A stretch of 64,000 nt of DNA from an uncultured Candidatus Saccharibacteria bacterium (GCA_965231055.1 OZ246411.1:48334-112333), one strand, 5' to 3'; counted from the stretch's first letter, positions 1 to 48,689 are shown. Notes: generated by a model from the letters alone, not told the origin. Numbers and translations: made by a program.

Positions 1-145
1 GTCTTTTGATTTCATATAATTGCTCATATGGACAATTTGAATCGTTTTCTCAAGGGGTCTGCTTCTCTGCCTCTAAAAATATTTTAGCAAGCAGAGGTTC
101 CCTGGCAACTGAAATTTTGTCCAGATGGACAATTTTCCGAATCAA

Positions 146-190
146 ATATAAAAAGAGCCGCCATGTGTTTTAAGGACACAATGGCGGCAT
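146..190 (-). terminator. rho-independent terminator of CDS 198..839
   Basis: GC-rich hairpin gccgccatgtg...cacaatggcggc followed by T-run on minus strand. Confidence 0.55.
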
Positions 191-197
191 TTTGTTG

Positions 198-839
198 TCA
201 CTCTCCAACTTGGATAGTTTCAATTCGGATCTGGGTGCGTCTTTTGCTTCGATGATCAACAAGGATTGAGGATATAAACGGCCCGGGAGAAAACGGGATT
301 CCACTCCTGACGGTAATAACTGATGAATCCGCGTTTAGGCTGAGCTCGATTGGGACATTGATTATATCGAGATCGTCTTCCTCTTTTGGATACAACCATT
401 GTCCTGTCAGGTGATCAAGAACCAAATAAAGCACGAACATGTCAATCTTAACTTTTTGATTCCGATTTCCGTGAAATCTGACGGGGATTTTCGTAAATTC
501 ACCCCGGAGAATTCCTATTCTCAACCACTCTCTACATGTTGATTCCAGATCACCCCATGTTGTTGCAAGTTCTGATTCATACGAACGAATTTTGGAGAAT
601 TCTATGACCGCGCGCACATAACTGCAGATCAAATGCGAAGAAGCTTTGGCTAACTCAACAGGGGCATTGGGAATTCCGCAAAGCACTGATATAACCGATT
701 GCATTTTATTCATTACGATATGGTTCAACACACGACCAAGAAGATTGATCTTCTGCTCCGTCGTTGGCTCGACAACTTGTGGCTCGACGATCCTCCGATT
801 ACTACCGCTAAACCTCTTGATATTTGCTTTCTTATTCAT
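198..839 (-). CDS. hypothetical protein (GC-rich island gene, strong SD gaggagg)
   Basis: 213-aa ORF; about 50% GC versus about 33% background; strong SD 7 nt before ATG; conserved 80-nt leader upstream. Confidence 0.5.
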   Translation of the reverse strand: MNKKANIKRFSGSNRRIVEPQVVEPTTEQKINLLGRVLNHIVMNKMQSVISVLCGIPNAPVELAKASSHLICSYVRAVIEFSKIRSYESELATTWGDLESTCREWLRIGILRGEFTKIPVRFHGNRNQKVKIDMFVLYLVLDHLTGQWLYPKEEDDLDIINVPIELSLNADSSVITVRSGIPFSPGPFISSILVDHRSKRRTQIRIETIQVGE

Positions 840-924
840 AGTTTCCTCCTCGAAAGCAATTCCAAAACTACCGCCCTGTATTCAGGAGCCGTAATCGGGA
901 ATTTTGTTAACGAACAATCCATTC

Positions 925-1010
925 CTACCTCGTGCCTGAAATGCCAGAGGGTATTTCAAAAACGAAAGAAGAATGAGGGGCGAGAACAAAGATTTTGCTG
1001 CCGCCCCCTT
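925..1010 (-). promoter_or_regulatory. conserved about 80-nt leader/operator element, copy A (dyad TGAAATGCC-N5-GTATTTCA)
   Basis: about 75% identical to 1478..1555; both sit 30-90 nt upstream of adjacent minus-strand GC-island genes. Confidence 0.45.
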
Positions 1011-1023
1011 CATAGCTTGATAG

Positions 1024-1437
1024 CTACTTTTGTTGTGGCTTGAACGGACACGTTTGGATTGGACAATGAGGACAGATGAACCAGGCGAAATAGGTTTCTC
1101 TGGACATCGGATTTTTCGTCCGTGCATATGCTGTCACCGTGGAACAAACATCCCATGCATTCACAATTCTGTAAGCAAGCCGTGACGGGATCGCGCCATT
1201 TCGCTTAAGCTCAAACCACTGTTTACCCAGTAGACACCACTCGGTAACCAGTAATACCCCATAGGCCCCCATAGATAGTAGACGGTGTTCAGGTTTATCC
1301 TCCTTGAGTGGACGTTCCCAGCTCGTAACGCAAGTGAAATTTCCATAGTAACCATCTGGCCAGACCATATGATGTTCTAGTGCTTCCTTCCATTTTTTCA
1401 GATCTTCACTGTCGGGCACACGATATTCGGTGGTCAT
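1024..1437 (-). CDS. hypothetical protein (start at internal ATG 1437, SD aaggggga)
   Basis: ORF 1024..1563 trimmed to the ATG with a good SD; GC-rich; C-terminal CPHCPxxxC motif. Confidence 0.45.
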   Translation of the reverse strand: MTTEYRVPDSEDLKKWKEALEHHMVWPDGYYGNFTCVTSWERPLKEDKPEHRLLSMGAYGVLLVTEWCLLGKQWFELKRNGAIPSRLAYRIVNAWDVCSTVTAYARTKNPMSRETYFAWFICPHCPIQTCPFKPQQK

Positions 1438-1477
1438 GATTTTCCCCCTTTCATTGTTTCGACTTTCTTTCTTCGTG

Positions 1478-1555
1478 CCTGACATGCCCGGAAGCATTTC
1501 AAACACGAAGGAAGAATGAGGGACGGCGGCAGAAAGATCTGGGGCCGTCCCGAGT
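1478..1555 (-). promoter_or_regulatory. conserved about 80-nt leader/operator element, copy B (dyad TGACATGCC-N5-GCATTTCA)
   Basis: paralogous to 925..1010; shared core ccctcattcttcYttcgt. Confidence 0.45.
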
Positions 1556-1556
1556 C

Positions 1557-1814
1557 TCAACAAACGTTTCTTCGCATTTTTCGTTCCTGTTCACGCGCTC
1601 GCGCGAAGATTTCAACCAGACATTCGGGATCAAACGCCTCTTTAAGAACGGCAAAGAAATCATCACTTTTCTTGCTAGACAAAAAGTCTTGAAGATCATC
1701 CGGAATCTCACAGATCCAAGCAGCTGCAGAAATGGCTATTAAAACGCCGTCTTCTCCATGCAAGGCTTCCTCCATTTCTTTCTTAGATTTTTCAAGTATC
1801 TCGGGCCTTTTCAT
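1557..1814 (-). CDS. small acidic hypothetical protein
   Basis: 85-aa ORF with strong SD (caaggaggg); GC-rich. Confidence 0.4.
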   Translation of the reverse strand: MKRPEILEKSKKEMEEALHGEDGVLIAISAAAWICEIPDDLQDFLSSKKSDDFFAVLKEAFDPECLVEIFARAREQERKMRRNVC

Positions 1815-1946
1815 TGATTTACCCTCCTTGTTACAGCTCCGCCACTCCCTGCCTTCAAACAGAGAATCAGTGAGCTTTGTTAATGTTCATCCGTATTTAC
1901 CGTAACGCTGCATTCAACCATTAAGTCTATATAAAGTCAACACTAT

Positions 1947-1975
1947 TTGACGACTTTTGTTATTAGTGATATAAT
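1947..1975 (+). promoter_or_regulatory. sigma70-type promoter (TTGACG-17-TATAAT)
   Basis: perfect -35/-10 spacing upstream of the TrmB-like gene. Confidence 0.5.
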
Positions 1976-2027
1976 GGCTAATATAAGAGTTTTAGGTGAT
2001 TTCTATCCATTTATTTTGACATCTACT

Positions 2028-2774
2028 ATGCGCGATGAACTAATACAATTAGGTCTCTCCTCTCACCAGGCCGATATCTACCTGGCTCTTTTGGAGTCCG
2101 GACCAAGCTCAATTGGCCCCCTGGCCAAAAAAGTGCATCTGCACCGGCAGATCATCTACAATACCCTGGCTGAATTGGAACGGCAGGGTTTGGTGACTGT
2201 CTCCCCCAAAGGATATCGTCGTTATTTCCGCGCCGAGAGTCCGGAAAATATCACCCGCAATATCAAGCGCCAGGTCGCACTCGCCCAAGAAATCGTGCCG
2301 CAACTGAATCAGCACCAGGCAACCAGTAAGCACGCCAATGAAATCACTGTCTATGAAGGCATTCTGGAGATCCAGCGATTCTTTCGCCAGGCACTGGAAA
2401 ATCAACCGGCCCATAGCACGGTTTCTATCATCGGCGGTGGAGCCAGTAAGTTCTTTGATTTGGTGGATCAGGACAACTTCTTCCGGCAATATGAGAAGAT
2501 TCGTCTGCGCAAGCAGATCAAACACGCCATTCTGCTTTACGAGAATCAAAAAAAAGACCCCAAAGTGGATCTCTATACCAATCGACGCGACCTGGTGACA
2601 TCTAAATTTTTATCGGATGATTTTGATCAGCCTCTGGCCACGACTATCTGGCATGATCGCCTTTCCATGTTATTCTTCGGCCCTACTCCACTGATCATCT
2701 CCCTCAAAGGCGGAGCCCTGGTCAAAACCTACCAGAATTATTTCAAACTGCTCTGGAAAAGCGCCGGAAATTAA
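2028..2774 (+). CDS. TrmB-family transcriptional regulator
   Basis: N-terminal wHTH LGLSSHQADIYLALLESGPSSIGPLAKK...LERQGLV typical of TrmB; start moved to ATG 2028 because the ORF's first ATG lies inside the promoter. Confidence 0.65.
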   Translation: MRDELIQLGLSSHQADIYLALLESGPSSIGPLAKKVHLHRQIIYNTLAELERQGLVTVSPKGYRRYFRAESPENITRNIKRQVALAQEIVPQLNQHQATSKHANEITVYEGILEIQRFFRQALENQPAHSTVSIIGGGASKFFDLVDQDNFFRQYEKIRLRKQIKHAILLYENQKKDPKVDLYTNRRDLVTSKFLSDDFDQPLATTIWHDRLSMLFFGPTPLIISLKGGALVKTYQNYFKLLWKSAGN

Positions 2775-2818
2775 GAGGGCAGGCAGGACTCGAACTCGAT
2801 TATTTGGCTTATGAAAGC

Positions 2819-2845
2819 GAAAACCCCGTTTTGCGGGGTTTTTCG
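2819..2845 (+). terminator. rho-independent terminator
   Basis: aaccccgttttgcggggtt hairpin followed by T-run. Confidence 0.7.
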
Positions 2846-2919
2846 ATGCTGTTCACTCGAACTGTTTTTTTAGGCTGTGCTTAGCGGAAATTTGTATTCA
2901 AAGACAAATAAAAATTCGT

Positions 2920-2994
2920 TGGCTCCCCGAGCTGGACTCGAACCAGCAACCCTCTCGTTAACAGCGAGATGCTCTACCATTGAGCTATCGGGGA
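2920..2994 (-). tRNA. tRNA-Asn (anticodon GTT)
   Basis: cloverleaf: acceptor TCCCCGA/TCGGGGA, anticodon loop CTGTTAA, T-arm GGTTCGAGTCC, encoded CCA. Confidence 0.9.
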
Positions 2995-3017
2995 ATAATT
3001 GAATATGCAAATTTTTA

Positions 3018-3091
3018 TCAGCGAGATGCTCCCTGCCTCTACCTGTCGGTAGACAGGTGCCGGCAGGCAGATACCATTGAGCTATCGGGGA
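3018..3091 (-). pseudogene. truncated tRNA-Asn 5'-half pseudo-copy with 39-nt GC-rich palindromic insert in the D-loop
   Basis: TCCCCGATAGCTCAATGGTA + insert + GAGCATCTCGCTG, then diverges at the anticodon; no 3' half. Confidence 0.6.
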
Positions 3092-3100
3092 ATACGATAA

Positions 3101-3445
3101 CTAGTTTGAGCTAGAAATCATCCTTATCCTAATTTCTAGCATTTTTACTATATGCTCGCATTCGTAAGCGAGTTTTCTGTAAAATGACTTGTCTATAATA
3201 GCGGATTCGTAGAGATTGTCCAGCCATGCGAGAGTTTCATTGGCCTTTCCGAGCGCTCGCTCAAGAAATCTCTGAATATCGTTTTTATTCTGGCTTTTTC
3301 TTGCGGCAAGTAGATAATTGTCCACTGCCTCTGAAGACTCTATCATTTTCTCCCCTATCTCAGACATCACAAATCCTCTTGGCAACTTGTCAGCCAATAA
3401 AACAATCTGGGTGGAAAAACGTCCTGATGTTTCTATGATATCCAT
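3101..3445 (-). CDS. four-helix-bundle protein (23S rRNA-intervening-sequence protein family-like)
   Basis: 114-aa helical protein; start set to MDIIETS to avoid overlap with rpoD. Confidence 0.45.
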   Translation of the reverse strand: MDIIETSGRFSTQIVLLADKLPRGFVMSEIGEKMIESSEAVDNYLLAARKSQNKNDIQRFLERALGKANETLAWLDNLYESAIIDKSFYRKLAYECEHIVKMLEIRIRMISSSN

Positions 3446-3452
3446 GGAAAAT

Positions 3453-4796
3453 TTAATAGTCTCTAAGTTTTTTAAGATCTTCGTCTGCACGTATTTTTTC
3501 AAGTGCCTTCGCCTCTATCTGTCTTATACGCTCTCTCGTCACTCCAAATTCTTGTCCCACTTCCTCAAGAGTGTGTCCTATTCCATCAGTAAGTCCAAAT
3601 CGCATCTCTAGAATTTTTTGTTCTCTTGGGAGCAATCTTCTGAGTACTTTTTCAACATGCTCTTTGAGAAGCTTTCTGGCTGCACTTTGACTTGGAGAAA
3701 GAGTTTTGTCGTCTTCAATAAAATCTCCGAGCGTGCTCTCGCTGTCATCATCATCTCCCACTGAAGTCTGAAGTGAAACTGTTTCTTGATTTATTTTTAT
3801 AATATGTCTAACCTTGTCCACGTCCATTCCCATTTCTGCTGCAATTTCTTCTGGCAAAGGCTCTCTTCCGAGATCCTGAACTAGTCTTCGCGAAATTTGT
3901 GTAAATTTATTTATAGTTTCAACCATGTGCACAGGAATACGAATAGTTCTTGATTGATCAGCTAGCGCTCTTGTGATTGCTTGCCTGATCCACCATGTCG
4001 CATAAGTTGAAAATTTGTATCCCTTGCGATAATCAAATTTATCTACAGCTCTAAACAATCCTATATTTCCCTCTTGAATAAGATCAAGCAGTGTCAGGTC
4101 TCCTTGTCCTACATATTTTTTGGCAATACTTACGACAAGTCTCAAGTTGGCTTCAATCAATCTTTTGCGAGCCGCCTTGTCCCCTCGTTTCATTCTTTTT
4201 GCGAGCATCACTTCTTCTTCTCCTGTCAAAAGATTTACTCTACCTATTTCTCGTAGATACATCTGCACAGAATCTCCAGCAAGTCCGCCTGAAAAATCTT
4301 GACTGCTAAAAGTTTCACTTCCTTCATCTGATTCTTCTTCAATTTTCAATATCTCTGTCTCGTGTTTTTTTGATTCCAAAACTTCCTTCTTGGCTTCGAT
4401 AACAGAAGCATCCATGGATAGCGCTTCTTTACCTTCTACTACGTCTATGCCTTCATTATCAAAATACTCCAAAACTTCTTCAAGTTTTTGGATATTGGTT
4501 TCGGCTTCAGGTATTGCTTGCAAAATTTCGCCCTCAGAAACAAATCCTTGATCCTTGCCCTTGACTATAAGTTCATCAATTGATTTCTTCTGTTCTTCTG
4601 GAGTGATGCTCTGAATTTCTTTTTCTGATTTGGCTGGTGTTTTTACCCGAGAAAGAAATCCTTTTCTTTTCTTCGCATACTTTGCTTTTCTTTTGGCGTT
4701 CTGTTTTCTGGTTTTCTTTCGGGGCTTGCGAACCATTTTTACTCGCCTAGATTTTGCTGGTTTAGCCTTTTTCTTTTTGGAAGTTTTTTTCTTCAC
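3453..4796 (-). CDS. rpoD: RNA polymerase sigma factor RpoD (sigma-70) with lysine-rich N-terminus
   Basis: regions 2-4 motifs [50 protein letters not shown]. Confidence 0.95.
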
Positions 4797-4826
4797 GTAT
4801 TTTAAGTATTAATCGTCAAATTAAAA

Positions 4827-6647
4827 CTAACGAAAATCGGCCATTTGCTTTTGAAGTAGCTCCATGAGCTTTGATATTTCCACACTGATTTCTTCAGCTC
4901 TTTGATTATTGCCTTTGGCTTCTACTACTCTGAGTTCGCCCTCTTTATCCTTTAACCATCTTCTTAAATGGTAAATATAAAGCTCACCAAGGCATCTCTT
5001 GATTTCTGGTTCAAACTGATCTTCAGGTATGTTTTCGTTTTCTATGACCAAAACAAGCTCACTGAGCATGTCTGCAAGTTTTTTGTCCTGAATAGCAACC
5101 ACATCCTTGAAGGCACCGAGATCAAATTGTCCTGTCCTATTATAAAATTCTTTTAGGTTTTCGTAAAGCCCTATATAACTCTCCGGCAAAAGCTTGATTT
5201 TCTCTTCTTCTACCGAATTCACGAGTTCAGGAAAAGACAATAAAAGCGCCAAAATTCTATTTTCAAGTTTATTTTTTCTTCCTAGCATTTTATCCCCGCG
5301 TGGAATAGCTATTACAGATTTTTTGGATTCCAATCTTGTGTATTTTGATGAATTTTTGTCTTTGCTAATTGCACCCAAAAGATCTCTCACAATAGATTCT
5401 TCTGTATCTATTTTTTCTGAAAGCGATTTGATGTAATGATCCTGTTCTATCTTGTCAGACATAAAACTCAAAAATTTCAATATTTCAGCAGCAGCTTTTT
5501 TCTTTTGAACGACGTCTTTGAGATTGGTTTTGGCGAGCACGCTGTCTATAATAAAATCTCCTACTGATTTTTTGGCTTTGAGAATTGCGAGCCATCTTTT
5601 TGGACTCTCTTTTATGATATCGGCTGGATCTTTTCCCATATCACTTATGCTTACCACTTTTACATTCATTCCCGCGACAAGAGCGATTTCTATTCCTCTT
5701 CTTGTTGCCTTGTCTCCTGCGATATCCATATCGAAAGCTAGAACCAAATTATTTGTATATCTTTTTACGAGATCTATTTGCTCGGTGGTAAATGCTGTGC
5801 CAGAAACTGATACCGTATTTTTTACGTCAGCCTGATGAGACATGATAACATCCGTATATCCTTCGACGATAATAGCAAAATCATATTTGCGTATATAATT
5901 TTTGGCTTTATCAAGTCCATAAAGCACTGCACTTTTGTTGTATATCGGAGTTGTGGGAGTGTTTACATATTTGGGACCTTCGAATTTGGGATCAGATTTT
6001 ATAAACTCCCTGCCCCCAAACCCCACAGTATCTCCATGAGAATCAAAAATCGGAAACATAATTCTTCCCCTAAACCTATCGTATATTCCTTTTTTATTTT
6101 TTCTGGGTAGCCCTAGCCCCACTTCTATGCAATCGCTTTCGTTGAAACCAGATGCGTTCATTTTTCTTGATAGTTCATCCCATCCGATAGGAGAAAAACC
6201 TATGTGAAACTCTGAAATTGATTTTTCGGTAATGCCCCTTTTGACAAGATAATCAAAAGCTTTTTTTCCTTCCTCTGTTTTGGTTATATTTTCTTCAAAA
6301 AAAGCCATAGCTCTTTGATTCATCACAAAAAGTCTTCTTCTGTGCTCATCTATTTTGAAACTTGTTTTCTTGATTTCTACTCCCGCCTTTGTCGCCAATA
6401 CTCTCATGGCTTCAGGAAAATCTATATTGTCCATTTTCATTACGAAAGTAAAAATATCTCCACCCTCTCCGCAACCAAAACAATGCCAGATTTGTTTTTC
6501 TGGACTCACAACAAGAGAAGGTGTTTTTTCATTATGAAAAGGACACCTAGCTTTGTAATTCACGCCGGCTTTTGAGAGCTGAATATAATCTCTAATAACA
6601 TCTACTATATCCAGTTTTGATTTGATTTCTTCTTTTTGATCTAGCAT
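4827..6647 (-). CDS. dnaG: DNA primase DnaG
   Basis: CHC2 zinc finger CPFHNEKTPSL..CFGCGEGGD; TOPRIM EGYTDV; classical dnaG-rpoD arrangement. Confidence 0.95.
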   Translation of the reverse strand: MLDQKEEIKSKLDIVDVIRDYIQLSKAGVNYKARCPFHNEKTPSLVVSPEKQIWHCFGCGEGGDIFTFVMKMDNIDFPEAMRVLATKAGVEIKKTSFKIDEHRRRLFVMNQRAMAFFEENITKTEEGKKAFDYLVKRGITEKSISEFHIGFSPIGWDELSRKMNASGFNESDCIEVGLGLPRKNKKGIYDRFRGRIMFPIFDSHGDTVGFGGREFIKSDPKFEGPKYVNTPTTPIYNKSAVLYGLDKAKNYIRKYDFAIIVEGYTDVIMSHQADVKNTVSVSGTAFTTEQIDLVKRYTNNLVLAFDMDIAGDKATRRGIEIALVAGMNVKVVSISDMGKDPADIIKESPKRWLAILKAKKSVGDFIIDSVLAKTNLKDVVQKKKAAAEILKFLSFMSDKIEQDHYIKSLSEKIDTEESIVRDLLGAISKDKNSSKYTRLESKKSVIAIPRGDKMLGRKNKLENRILALLLSFPELVNSVEEEKIKLLPESYIGLYENLKEFYNRTGQFDLGAFKDVVAIQDKKLADMLSELVLVIENENIPEDQFEPEIKRCLGELYIYHLRRWLKDKEGELRVVEAKGNNQRAEEISVEISKLMELLQKQMADFR

Positions 6648-48143: not shown

Positions 48144-48689
48144 TTATCGCATCCGCATTTTCAATTCCCATTTCACAAGATTATCCAAAATATATTGCTG
48201 AAATCGTGCATATTTATTTTGATTTCTGATAATGCGATCGTAATATGATTTTTGCCAGGCAAAATCTACGCCATTTAATTGTCGATGAATTTCGCGGGTT
48301 GTGGATGATTTGAATCCGTGAATGATTTTAGGCAAATGCATTTTGGTGCGATATTGATTATATGAATATTGCGATTGTAGGGAATGCAGATCTGCATTCC
48401 CTACAATCATTGCGGATATCATATCCGCATTTTCAATAATCAATATTCCATGAATATGATCGGGCATGATGATAAAATAACCCAAAACCACATTTTTGAA
48501 ATGAAATGGAATTGATCGCCAACATTCATTCGCAATTTTTCCGATTTGGAATAAAATTATTTTGCCATTTTTTATTTTACCCAAAACACGCTTGCGATCT
48601 TTGACACAAATCGTAATAAAATAATAACCTGGACTACTATAATCATATCTTTTTAATCTGATTGATTTACGATTGCGATATTTTTGCAT
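48144..48689 (-). CDS. RAYT/IS200-like HuH tyrosine transposase carrying an in-frame REP-like palindrome
   Basis: GYYFITICVKDR; HuH PDHIHGIL; catalytic WQKSYYDRII; about 25-aa insert encoded by GTAG-flanked palindrome 48373..48440. Confidence 0.7.
   Translation of the reverse strand: MQKYRNRKSIRLKRYDYSSPGYYFITICVKDRKRVLGKIKNGKIILFQIGKIANECWRSIPFHFKNVVLGYFIIMPDHIHGILIIENADMISAMIVGNADLHSLQSQYSYNQYRTKMHLPKIIHGFKSSTTREIHRQLNGVDFAWQKSYYDRIIRNQNKYARFQQYILDNLVKWELKMRMR
48373..48440. repeat. REP-like element: 34-bp perfect palindrome attGTAGggaatgcagatctgcattccCTACaat plus 19-bp palindrome tgcggatatcatatccgca
   Basis: read directly; lies inside the transposase CDS; 15-nt atccgcattttcaat repeated at 48151 and 48423. 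Confidence 0.7.

Follow-up and report, generated by a model that had tools for sequence, protein, structure and literature searches.

What does a conserved non-coding element do when it recurs between the genes of a small bacterial operon? The question is raised by a 64,000-nucleotide stretch of DNA from an uncultured Candidatus Saccharibacteria bacterium (GCA_965231055.1 OZ246411.1:48334-112333; hereafter the window), in which three small minus-strand genes, in the order C, B, A, are separated by two copies of a similar sequence of about 95 nt that make up the gaps between the cistrons (Table 1). A preliminary description of the locus interpreted these copies as a leader with a dyad-symmetric operator, or alternatively as a cis-regulatory RNA. 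We find that each copy consists, on the sense strand, of two adjoining hairpins (hp1 and hp2) located in a spacer with no sense-strand promoter of the sigma-70 type, and that the element most likely acts on an mRNA shared by the three genes rather than as a repressor-binding site.

The two copies align on the minus strand from 918 to 1012 and from 1461 to 1554, with a mean column identity of 83% over 96 columns (MAFFT). The similarity first noticed at 925-1010 and 1478-1555, with about 75% identity, is thereby real and slightly longer. A repeat search delimited an ungapped core (922-982 and 1465-1525) of 61 nt at 80% identity. When the two spacers were aligned over their whole lengths (Smith-Waterman), the score was 40, compared with a mean of 8.7 (standard deviation 1.3, maximum 14) for 1000 dinucleotide shuffles. 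The core motif CCCTCATTCTTCYTTCGT, correctly pointed out in the preliminary description as common to both stretches, has exactly these two sites in the 64 kb, even with up to three mismatches permitted, where 0.1 would be expected.

Identity between the copies is limited to the spacers and ends at the element borders, and pairwise comparison of protein C with protein B, and of B with A, shows no similarity. Since the flanking proteins are unrelated, the repeat is a duplication of the spacer only and not of a gene. A tandem duplication including coding sequence, the case that the preliminary description had named against its own interpretation, does not apply here.

Copy B extends from 5 nt past the gene C stop codon (TGA) to 27 nt upstream of the gene B ATG, and copy A from 15 nt past the gene B stop codon (TAG) to 82 nt upstream of the gene A ATG, in agreement with the earlier placement of both stretches some 30-90 nt in front of consecutive minus-strand start codons. 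Each of the three genes is preceded by a strong Shine-Dalgarno sequence. Using a covariance model made from both copies (R1), we searched, with no filters, the window together with a public contig that reaches 10 kb past its left edge (L017; 77,745 bases in all) and retrieved only the two adjacent copies. The best other match (20.7 bits, 48370-48479) is an unrelated palindrome in a Y1 transposase-like open reading frame (ORF). Neither this search nor local alignments revealed a copy upstream of gene C or in the other spacers of the genomic island to which the genes belong; the divergent region 1815-2027 upstream of gene C gave local alignment scores of 8-10, no more than shuffles do. The term leader is therefore only partly apt: a conserved, dyad-bearing, non-coding element does precede two genes, but it is not specific to gene fronts, as it fills gaps and gene C has no copy.

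On the sense (minus) strand, each copy forms hp1, which takes up its upstream third, and hp2, with only 2-3 nt between them. The hp2 of copy B is an inverted repeat with 23-nt arms that are 83% complementary, and in the helix as drawn, of 23 positions, standard pairs are found at 19 in copy A and 21 in copy B. The imperfect palindrome recognised in the preliminary description is indeed present in both copies in the same register (937-958 and 1480-1501), where it corresponds to the tip, the apical third, of hp2 only. The folding z-score of the sense strand was -5.5 for the spacer with copy B and -3.3 to -4.2 for that with copy A, and all four hairpins favour the sense over the antisense RNA, by 0.4-4.8 kcal/mol.

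In the alignment of the two copies, standard pairs occupy 94% of the pair cells, a proportion that falls to 47-56% once the 3' partners are displaced by 1-3 columns. The hp1 sequences are only 59% identical, yet the same alignment columns pair in both copies, with full compensation at two pairs (one from G-C to A-U, the other from A-U to G-C) and a wobble change at a third (G-U to G-C). In the hp2 stem, four of the eight differences are wobble-neutral (U-G to U-A or C-G), three make or break a pair, and one lies at a position mismatched in both copies. The wobble-neutral differences would be A-C mismatches on the other strand and count in favour of a structure in the sense RNA. This covariation is suggestive rather than a proof. 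The linker and hp2 together are 80% identical, compared with the 59% of hp1 (Fisher p = 0.048). Such uneven conservation suggests that hp1 may be constrained in structure alone, and hp2 together with the invariant CCCUCAUUCUUC tract in sequence as well.

What might the two hairpins do? As a stable, GC-rich stem-loop directly 3' of a stop codon, hp1 has the stem and the position of an intrinsic terminator, and its energies (-18.0 and -21.2 kcal/mol) are on a par with those of true terminators close by (-19.2 downstream of gene A and -16.3 downstream of a divergent gene for a TrmB-like regulator). In the tails that follow, UCAUUCUUCCUU in copy B and CAUUCUUCUUUCGUUUUU in copy A, five and four of the first eight positions, respectively, are U, with C and A as interruptions. 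Given terminator-like energies, interrupted U-rich tails and a terminator scanner that stayed silent, we read hp1 as a weak terminator or attenuator and/or a hairpin that protects an RNA 3' end. The duplex of hp2 has the length required of an RNase III site, about 20 bp or more with internal mismatches tolerated.

In neither of the element spacers did a promoter scan detect a sense-strand sigma-70-like promoter with at least 9 of 12 matches. The only -35-like hexamer in them is TTGAAA, and GGCACG stands 16-18 nt after it. A sigma-54 promoter (GGCACG, without TTGC) and a promoter of the extracytoplasmic-function type were also considered in these spacers and dismissed by eye on the grounds of spacing and sequence. 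The spacers in front of other island genes contain, as judged by eye, good -35/-10 pairs. Between gene C and the divergent TrmB-like gene, sigma-70-like sites are found on both strands: TTGACG-17-TATAAT with a TG on the plus strand (11 of 12 matches) and TGGATA-18-TATATT on the minus strand. The terminator downstream of gene A marks the end of the transcription unit and is its sole canonical terminator. With promoterless element spacers, promoter-like sites upstream of C and a terminator after A, one C-B-A transcription unit is the simplest reading.

On this basis we tentatively propose, giving it somewhat less than an even chance, that the element is an RNA-level punctuation of the operon in which hp1 serves as a leaky terminator or 3' stabiliser and hp2 is processed or bound, so that the expression of the three cistrons is tuned. 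The C-B-A mRNA would probably start in the promoter region common with the divergent TrmB-like gene and would end at the terminator after gene A. Just past the stop codon, hp1 with its interrupted U-rich tail would be a weak intrinsic terminator and/or would block 3' exonucleases; in both cases levels would be graded, C > B > A, and the upstream cistron would be stabilised. The hp2 duplex, of about two helical turns and with the U/C-rich tail of hp1 as its 5' arm, could be cut by a double-strand-specific nuclease of the RNase III type or bound by an RNA-binding protein, and could fix the 5' end of the downstream cistron or set its stability or translation. The repeat and its position, the two hairpins, the compensated pairs of hp1, and the absence of promoters from the spacers and of copies from the other sequences searched are direct observations. 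What we infer are the steps from structure to function: co-transcription of the three genes, a role of hp1 in terminating or attenuating transcription, and cleavage of hp2 or binding to it. Of the two options in the preliminary description, it is thus the cis-regulatory RNA that the evidence favours, while an operator in promoterless spacers is not supported.

Several points weigh against RNA-level punctuation. The terminator scanner gave no call for hp1, and efficient termination there would require promoters for B and A, of which none was found. The energy gaps between sense and antisense RNA are small. No double compensatory change occurs in hp2, where three differences break a pair, and the observed covariation values were matched by 127 of 500 shuffles; with only two copies and no homologous locus, the power of covariation is almost nil. 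A recent, functionless duplication of the spacer would yield equal sequence identity.

A more specific RNA-level possibility, which we consider very unlikely, is that the two-hairpin unit is a cis-acting RNA not described before, which a factor recognises and which lets transcription pass hp1 and thereby gates the orphan genes B and A. It could be a platform for an island-encoded protein (protein A, or the TrmB-like protein in an RNA-binding role), or could itself modify RNA polymerase as HK022 put and the Bacillus EAR element do. The invariant CCCUCAUUCUUC and UCAGGCACGA tracts would then be the determinants of recognition.

Neither the element nor its flanking genes could be linked to a known family. 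No Rfam 15 family matched the element at its gathering threshold (cmscan, window positions 1-4000, E up to 10), and the noise matches in the element region were far below threshold (BTnc231, 17.6 bits against 80.4; mir-4520, 17.3 against 90). Scans with the 18-nt core pattern returned chance matches only, 14 in genome contigs and 2 in viral contigs, while an hp2 pattern and a 24-nt pattern of its 5' arm gave unrelated chance matches or none in viral and metagenome collections. A blastn search of phage and plasmid records found no match to the element. Proteins A, B and C found only themselves among 5.8e9 proteins (5.8 billion clusters) and had no match in Pfam, PHROGs, PADLOC, NCBIfam or the PDB sequences; relatives of the TrmB-like protein were absent from viral contigs. 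A full HMMER search with protein A yielded a single match (E 1.5e-6, 37% identity, residues 89-133) to P0004, a 661-residue protein with seven MerR/HTH_17 units. Protein A, which itself has no Pfam match, may on this tentative evidence contain a helix-turn-helix of the excisionase/MerR type and be a DNA-binding protein of the island. Single-sequence AlphaFold modelling gave no usable structure for B or A (predicted local distance difference test, pLDDT, 36.5 and 40.8, respectively).

The explanation closest to the original one is a DNA operator, in which the dyad TGAAATGCC-N4-GGCATTTCA is bound as double-stranded DNA by a dimeric factor, either the TrmB-like protein or protein A, that represses or roadblocks B and A. 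The imperfect 9+9 palindrome in the same register in both copies would suit such a site, as would the gene for a winged-helix regulator 600 bp away and the weak match of protein A residues 89-133 to a MerR/HTH_17 repeat unit. However, neither spacer has a promoter, and as no sigma-70-like promoter is found there, an operator would have nothing to repress. The dyad half-site is absent from 1815-2027, where the operator of an autoregulating TrmB would be expected, and the dyad resembles none of the three characterised TrmB motifs, TACT-N3-AGTA, TATCAC-N5-GTGATA and TACT-N7-8-GAGTA, all of which lie at promoters (PMC4158304). The assignment to the TrmB family itself comes from the N-terminal winged-helix domain alone (PF01978). 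A motif search with the half-site showed no enrichment in the window (17 matches versus 24 expected). Moreover, the 23 complementary positions per arm exceed what an operator needs, part of the pairs being G-U and hence meaningless in duplex DNA, and conservation is no higher in the half-sites than elsewhere in the element: three of the 11 differences in the linker and hp2 fall within them, and the longest invariant runs, CCCTCATTCTTC and TCAGGCACGA, are asymmetric. We therefore regard an operator as decidedly doubtful.

Three further explanations treat the copies as mobile or repeated DNA. A selfish or neutral repeat, be it a repetitive extragenic palindrome or bacterial interspersed mosaic element (REP/BIME), a miniature inverted-repeat transposable element (MITE), an element of the Correia type, or a recent local duplication of a terminator-bearing spacer, would have no dedicated function. 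Duplication can produce two-copy families, palindromic intergenic repeats co-transcribed with operons are common in bacteria, and an ORF for a Y1 (IS200/RAYT-like) transposase is present in the window (48144-48689). That ORF is nevertheless 47 kb away and has no element at its flanks; the copies, only two and adjoining in 78 kb, have neither terminal inverted repeats spanning the unit (the ends are GGGRCGG... and ...GAAAG) nor a target-site duplication, and exact-pattern scans of viral, metagenome and genome collections gave chance matches only. A very recent neutral duplication is also disfavoured because hp1 has diverged, to 59% identity, and still retains its stem, and we consider this group of explanations quite improbable. 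Somewhat more room is left for a cassette junction like the promoter-early stem-loops (PeSLs) of phages, although it too is unlikely in our estimation. Each orphan gene would then be a mobile cassette bounded by a composite spacer, a terminator stem-loop joined to a non-canonical start signal, and the ~95-bp identity would mainly be a substrate for homologous recombination by which orphan genes of the island are shuffled, inserted or lost, with regulation secondary. PeSLs are conserved intergenic motifs of ~100 bp that have a polyG/polyC stem-loop terminator after the stop codon, extend to the Shine-Dalgarno sequence and ATG of the gene downstream, and occur preferentially with orphan genes in hyperplastic regions (PMC2839356; PMC4122927). 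The present locus has a G-run/C-run stem-loop, hp1, right past the stop in a conserved spacer of ~100 bp, flanking genes that are orphans, a regional GC content of 44% against 36% around it, and identity limited to the spacer. By definition, however, a PeSL includes an early promoter with a sigma-70 consensus and an AT-rich upstream region (PMC2839356), and both are absent here. The element occurs just twice, and the remaining orphan genes of the island have ordinary spacers unrelated to it. This is not a T4-like phage, and the flanking genes have no PHROG matches; the uneven divergence of hp1 and hp2 and the compensatory changes favour selection on structure over recombinational homogenisation. 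Small, promoterless, co-oriented orphan genes with imperfect palindromic repeats of ~90 nt between them might also recall an integron, with attC-type single-strand sites for a tyrosine recombinase and with B and A as promoterless cassettes. This is extremely improbable and largely refuted: the core sites RYYYAAC and GTTRRRY are absent from both strands of both spacers, two independent hairpins stand in place of one long bulged hairpin, gene A is followed by a plain terminator and no element copy, and no recombinase domain is among the Pfam families precomputed for the genes called across the neighbouring 13.7 kb.

Table 1. Coordinates of the element copies, their hairpins and the surrounding features in the window.
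Feature	Position	Strand	Details
Element copy B	1461..1556	minus	From the gene C stop to the gene B ribosome-binding region; R1 102.8 bits, E 7e-22
Element copy A	918..1012	minus	From the gene B stop to the untranslated stretch 5' of gene A; R1 97.2 bits, E 1.4e-20
hp1, copy B	1520..1551	minus	GGGACGGC..GCCGTCCC, tail UCAUUCUUCCUU; GC-rich; -21.2 kcal/mol; 5 nt past gene C TGA
hp1, copy A	976..1008	minus	GGGGGCGG..UCGCCCCU, tail CAUUCUUCUUUCGUUUUU; -18.0 kcal/mol sense versus -13.2 antisense; 15 nt past gene B TAG
hp2, copy B	1465..1516	minus	52-nt imperfect hairpin, 21 predicted pairs; -26.3 kcal/mol sense versus -23.9 antisense
hp2, copy A	922..973	minus	52-nt imperfect hairpin, 20 predicted pairs, several G-U; -15.7 kcal/mol
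Gene C	1557..1814	minus	First cistron, 85 aa; Shine-Dalgarno AAGGAGG; from the ORF list
Gene B	1024..1437	minus	137 aa; Shine-Dalgarno AGGGGG, 6 nt 5' of ATG (1437)
Gene A	198..839	minus	Last cistron, 213 aa; Shine-Dalgarno GAGGAGG; ATG at 839
Canonical intrinsic terminator after gene A	144..188	minus	GCCGCCAT..ATGGCGGC then UCUUUUUAUAUUU; -19.2 kcal/mol; uninterrupted U run
Divergent promoter region, gene C/TrmB-like gene	1815..2027	both	Sigma-70-like sites both ways
TrmB-family winged-helix regulator gene	2028..2774	plus	248 aa; PF01978, E 3.1e-12, residues 7-67 only; divergent from gene C
tRNA-Asn	2920-2994		

The start of gene B deserves a comment of its own. The public gene call (157 amino acids, P0001; window 1435-1497) begins at an ATG in the 3' arm of hp2 that has no Shine-Dalgarno sequence. 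The annotated start is probably wrong, and the ATG at 1437 would give the 137-residue protein; the present analysis thus corrects a public call whose start lies inside a hairpin. Two short reading frames were also seen in the spacers. One, of 28 codons (836-922, minus), begins at the 3' end of hp2 in copy A and overlaps the start of gene A by ATGA; the hairpin-arm sequence GAGGUAGGA could be its Shine-Dalgarno sequence. The other, of six codons (1434-1454, minus), has an ATGA overlap at the start of gene B. These frames, which are not conserved between the copies, could reflect translational coupling or coincidence, and we judge them possibly coincidental.

The operon lies in a part of the window that differs from its surroundings in composition, the first ~3-4 kb having a GC content of 44% versus ~36% elsewhere. 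In L017 the GC-richer region continues leftward, with more small genes without known domains. As a whole, the island (window 1 to ~3000, L017 ~900-5100) has 42-49% GC and many small genes without known domains, and it adjoins the tRNA-Asn gene. A search within 10 kb for an att-type repeat of the 3' end of tRNA-Asn was negative. Just upstream of this gene, at 3004-3095 on the minus strand, is a second copy of its 5' half, without the 3' half. Identity to the tRNA extends through the D-arm, the anticodon stem-loop of the fragment carries one change (CTGTTAA to CTGATAA), and its D-loop is split by a 40-nt palindromic insert (TCTGCCTGCC...GGCAGG). An old integration or rearrangement may have left this fragment as its scar. 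Between it and a sigma-70 (rpoD-like) gene (3453-4796) stands a gene of the 23S rRNA intervening-sequence protein family (3101-3502, minus; PF05635, E 2.9e-11).

Two other palindromic features were recorded. At 20-38 and 117-135 (L017 3809-3827 and 3906-3925), 97 nt apart, are the short palindromes TTGTCCATCTGGACAA and, in imperfect form, TTGTCCATATGAGCAA. They flank a sigma-70-like site 3' of the gene A terminator and 5' of the next island gene, and look more like a classical operator pair than does the dyad of hp2. The transposase ORF mentioned above (48144-48689, minus; 181 aa; Y1_Tnp, IS200-like/RAYT-like family, E 1.9e-6) holds within its coding sequence two perfect palindromes, TTGTAGGGAATGCAGATCTGCATTCCCTACAA (48370-48401) and GCGGATATCATATCCGC (48412-48428).

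If the element does act as RNA-level punctuation, the locus would be a compact example of how a bacterium with a small genome sets the relative expression of horizontally acquired orphan genes, namely with a reusable spacer that combines an attenuator and a processing hairpin and dispenses with a promoter for each gene. Its practical value is limited by the two copies, the lack of relatives and the orphan nature of the genes.

Intercistronic stem-loops are known to segment polycistronic mRNAs, as do the REP hairpins between malE and malF, those of the puf and pap operons and the RNase III sites among the early genes of T7. The element resembles them in placing hairpins between the cistrons of what would be one transcript, with a 3' hairpin that could protect the upstream cistron and an hp2 in the RNase III size class. 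Unlike them, it is unrelated in sequence, unites two hairpins in one conserved unit and uses a U/C-rich tract both as terminator tail and as hairpin arm. With intrinsic terminators hp1 shares a GC-rich stem of -18 to -21 kcal/mol just past the stop and a pyrimidine-rich tail, but its U tract is interrupted, internal loops occur in its stem, it escapes the scanner, and it lies inside an apparent operon. TrmB-family operators (PMC4158304) are likewise palindromic inverted repeats near a TrmB-family gene, but the present dyad differs from them in sequence, is not at a promoter, including that of the regulator itself, and is embedded in a longer, wobble-bearing hairpin. In architecture and in its association with orphan genes, the closest analogue is found in the PeSL cassettes of T4-like phages (PMC2839356; PMC4122927). 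PeSLs, too, are composite spacers of ~100 bp between small orphan genes of a variable region, with a stem-loop terminator or attenuator after the stop, and copy B, like them, ends close to the Shine-Dalgarno sequence and start codon of the gene that follows. They differ in having a promoter and AT-rich element where the present spacers have a hairpin of 20-24 bp, in numbering dozens instead of two, and in residing in phages, whereas the element studied here belongs to a chromosomal island next to tRNA-Asn. This likeness is a hint that the orphan genes of chromosomal islands, too, may be assembled by a comparable "regulatory glue".

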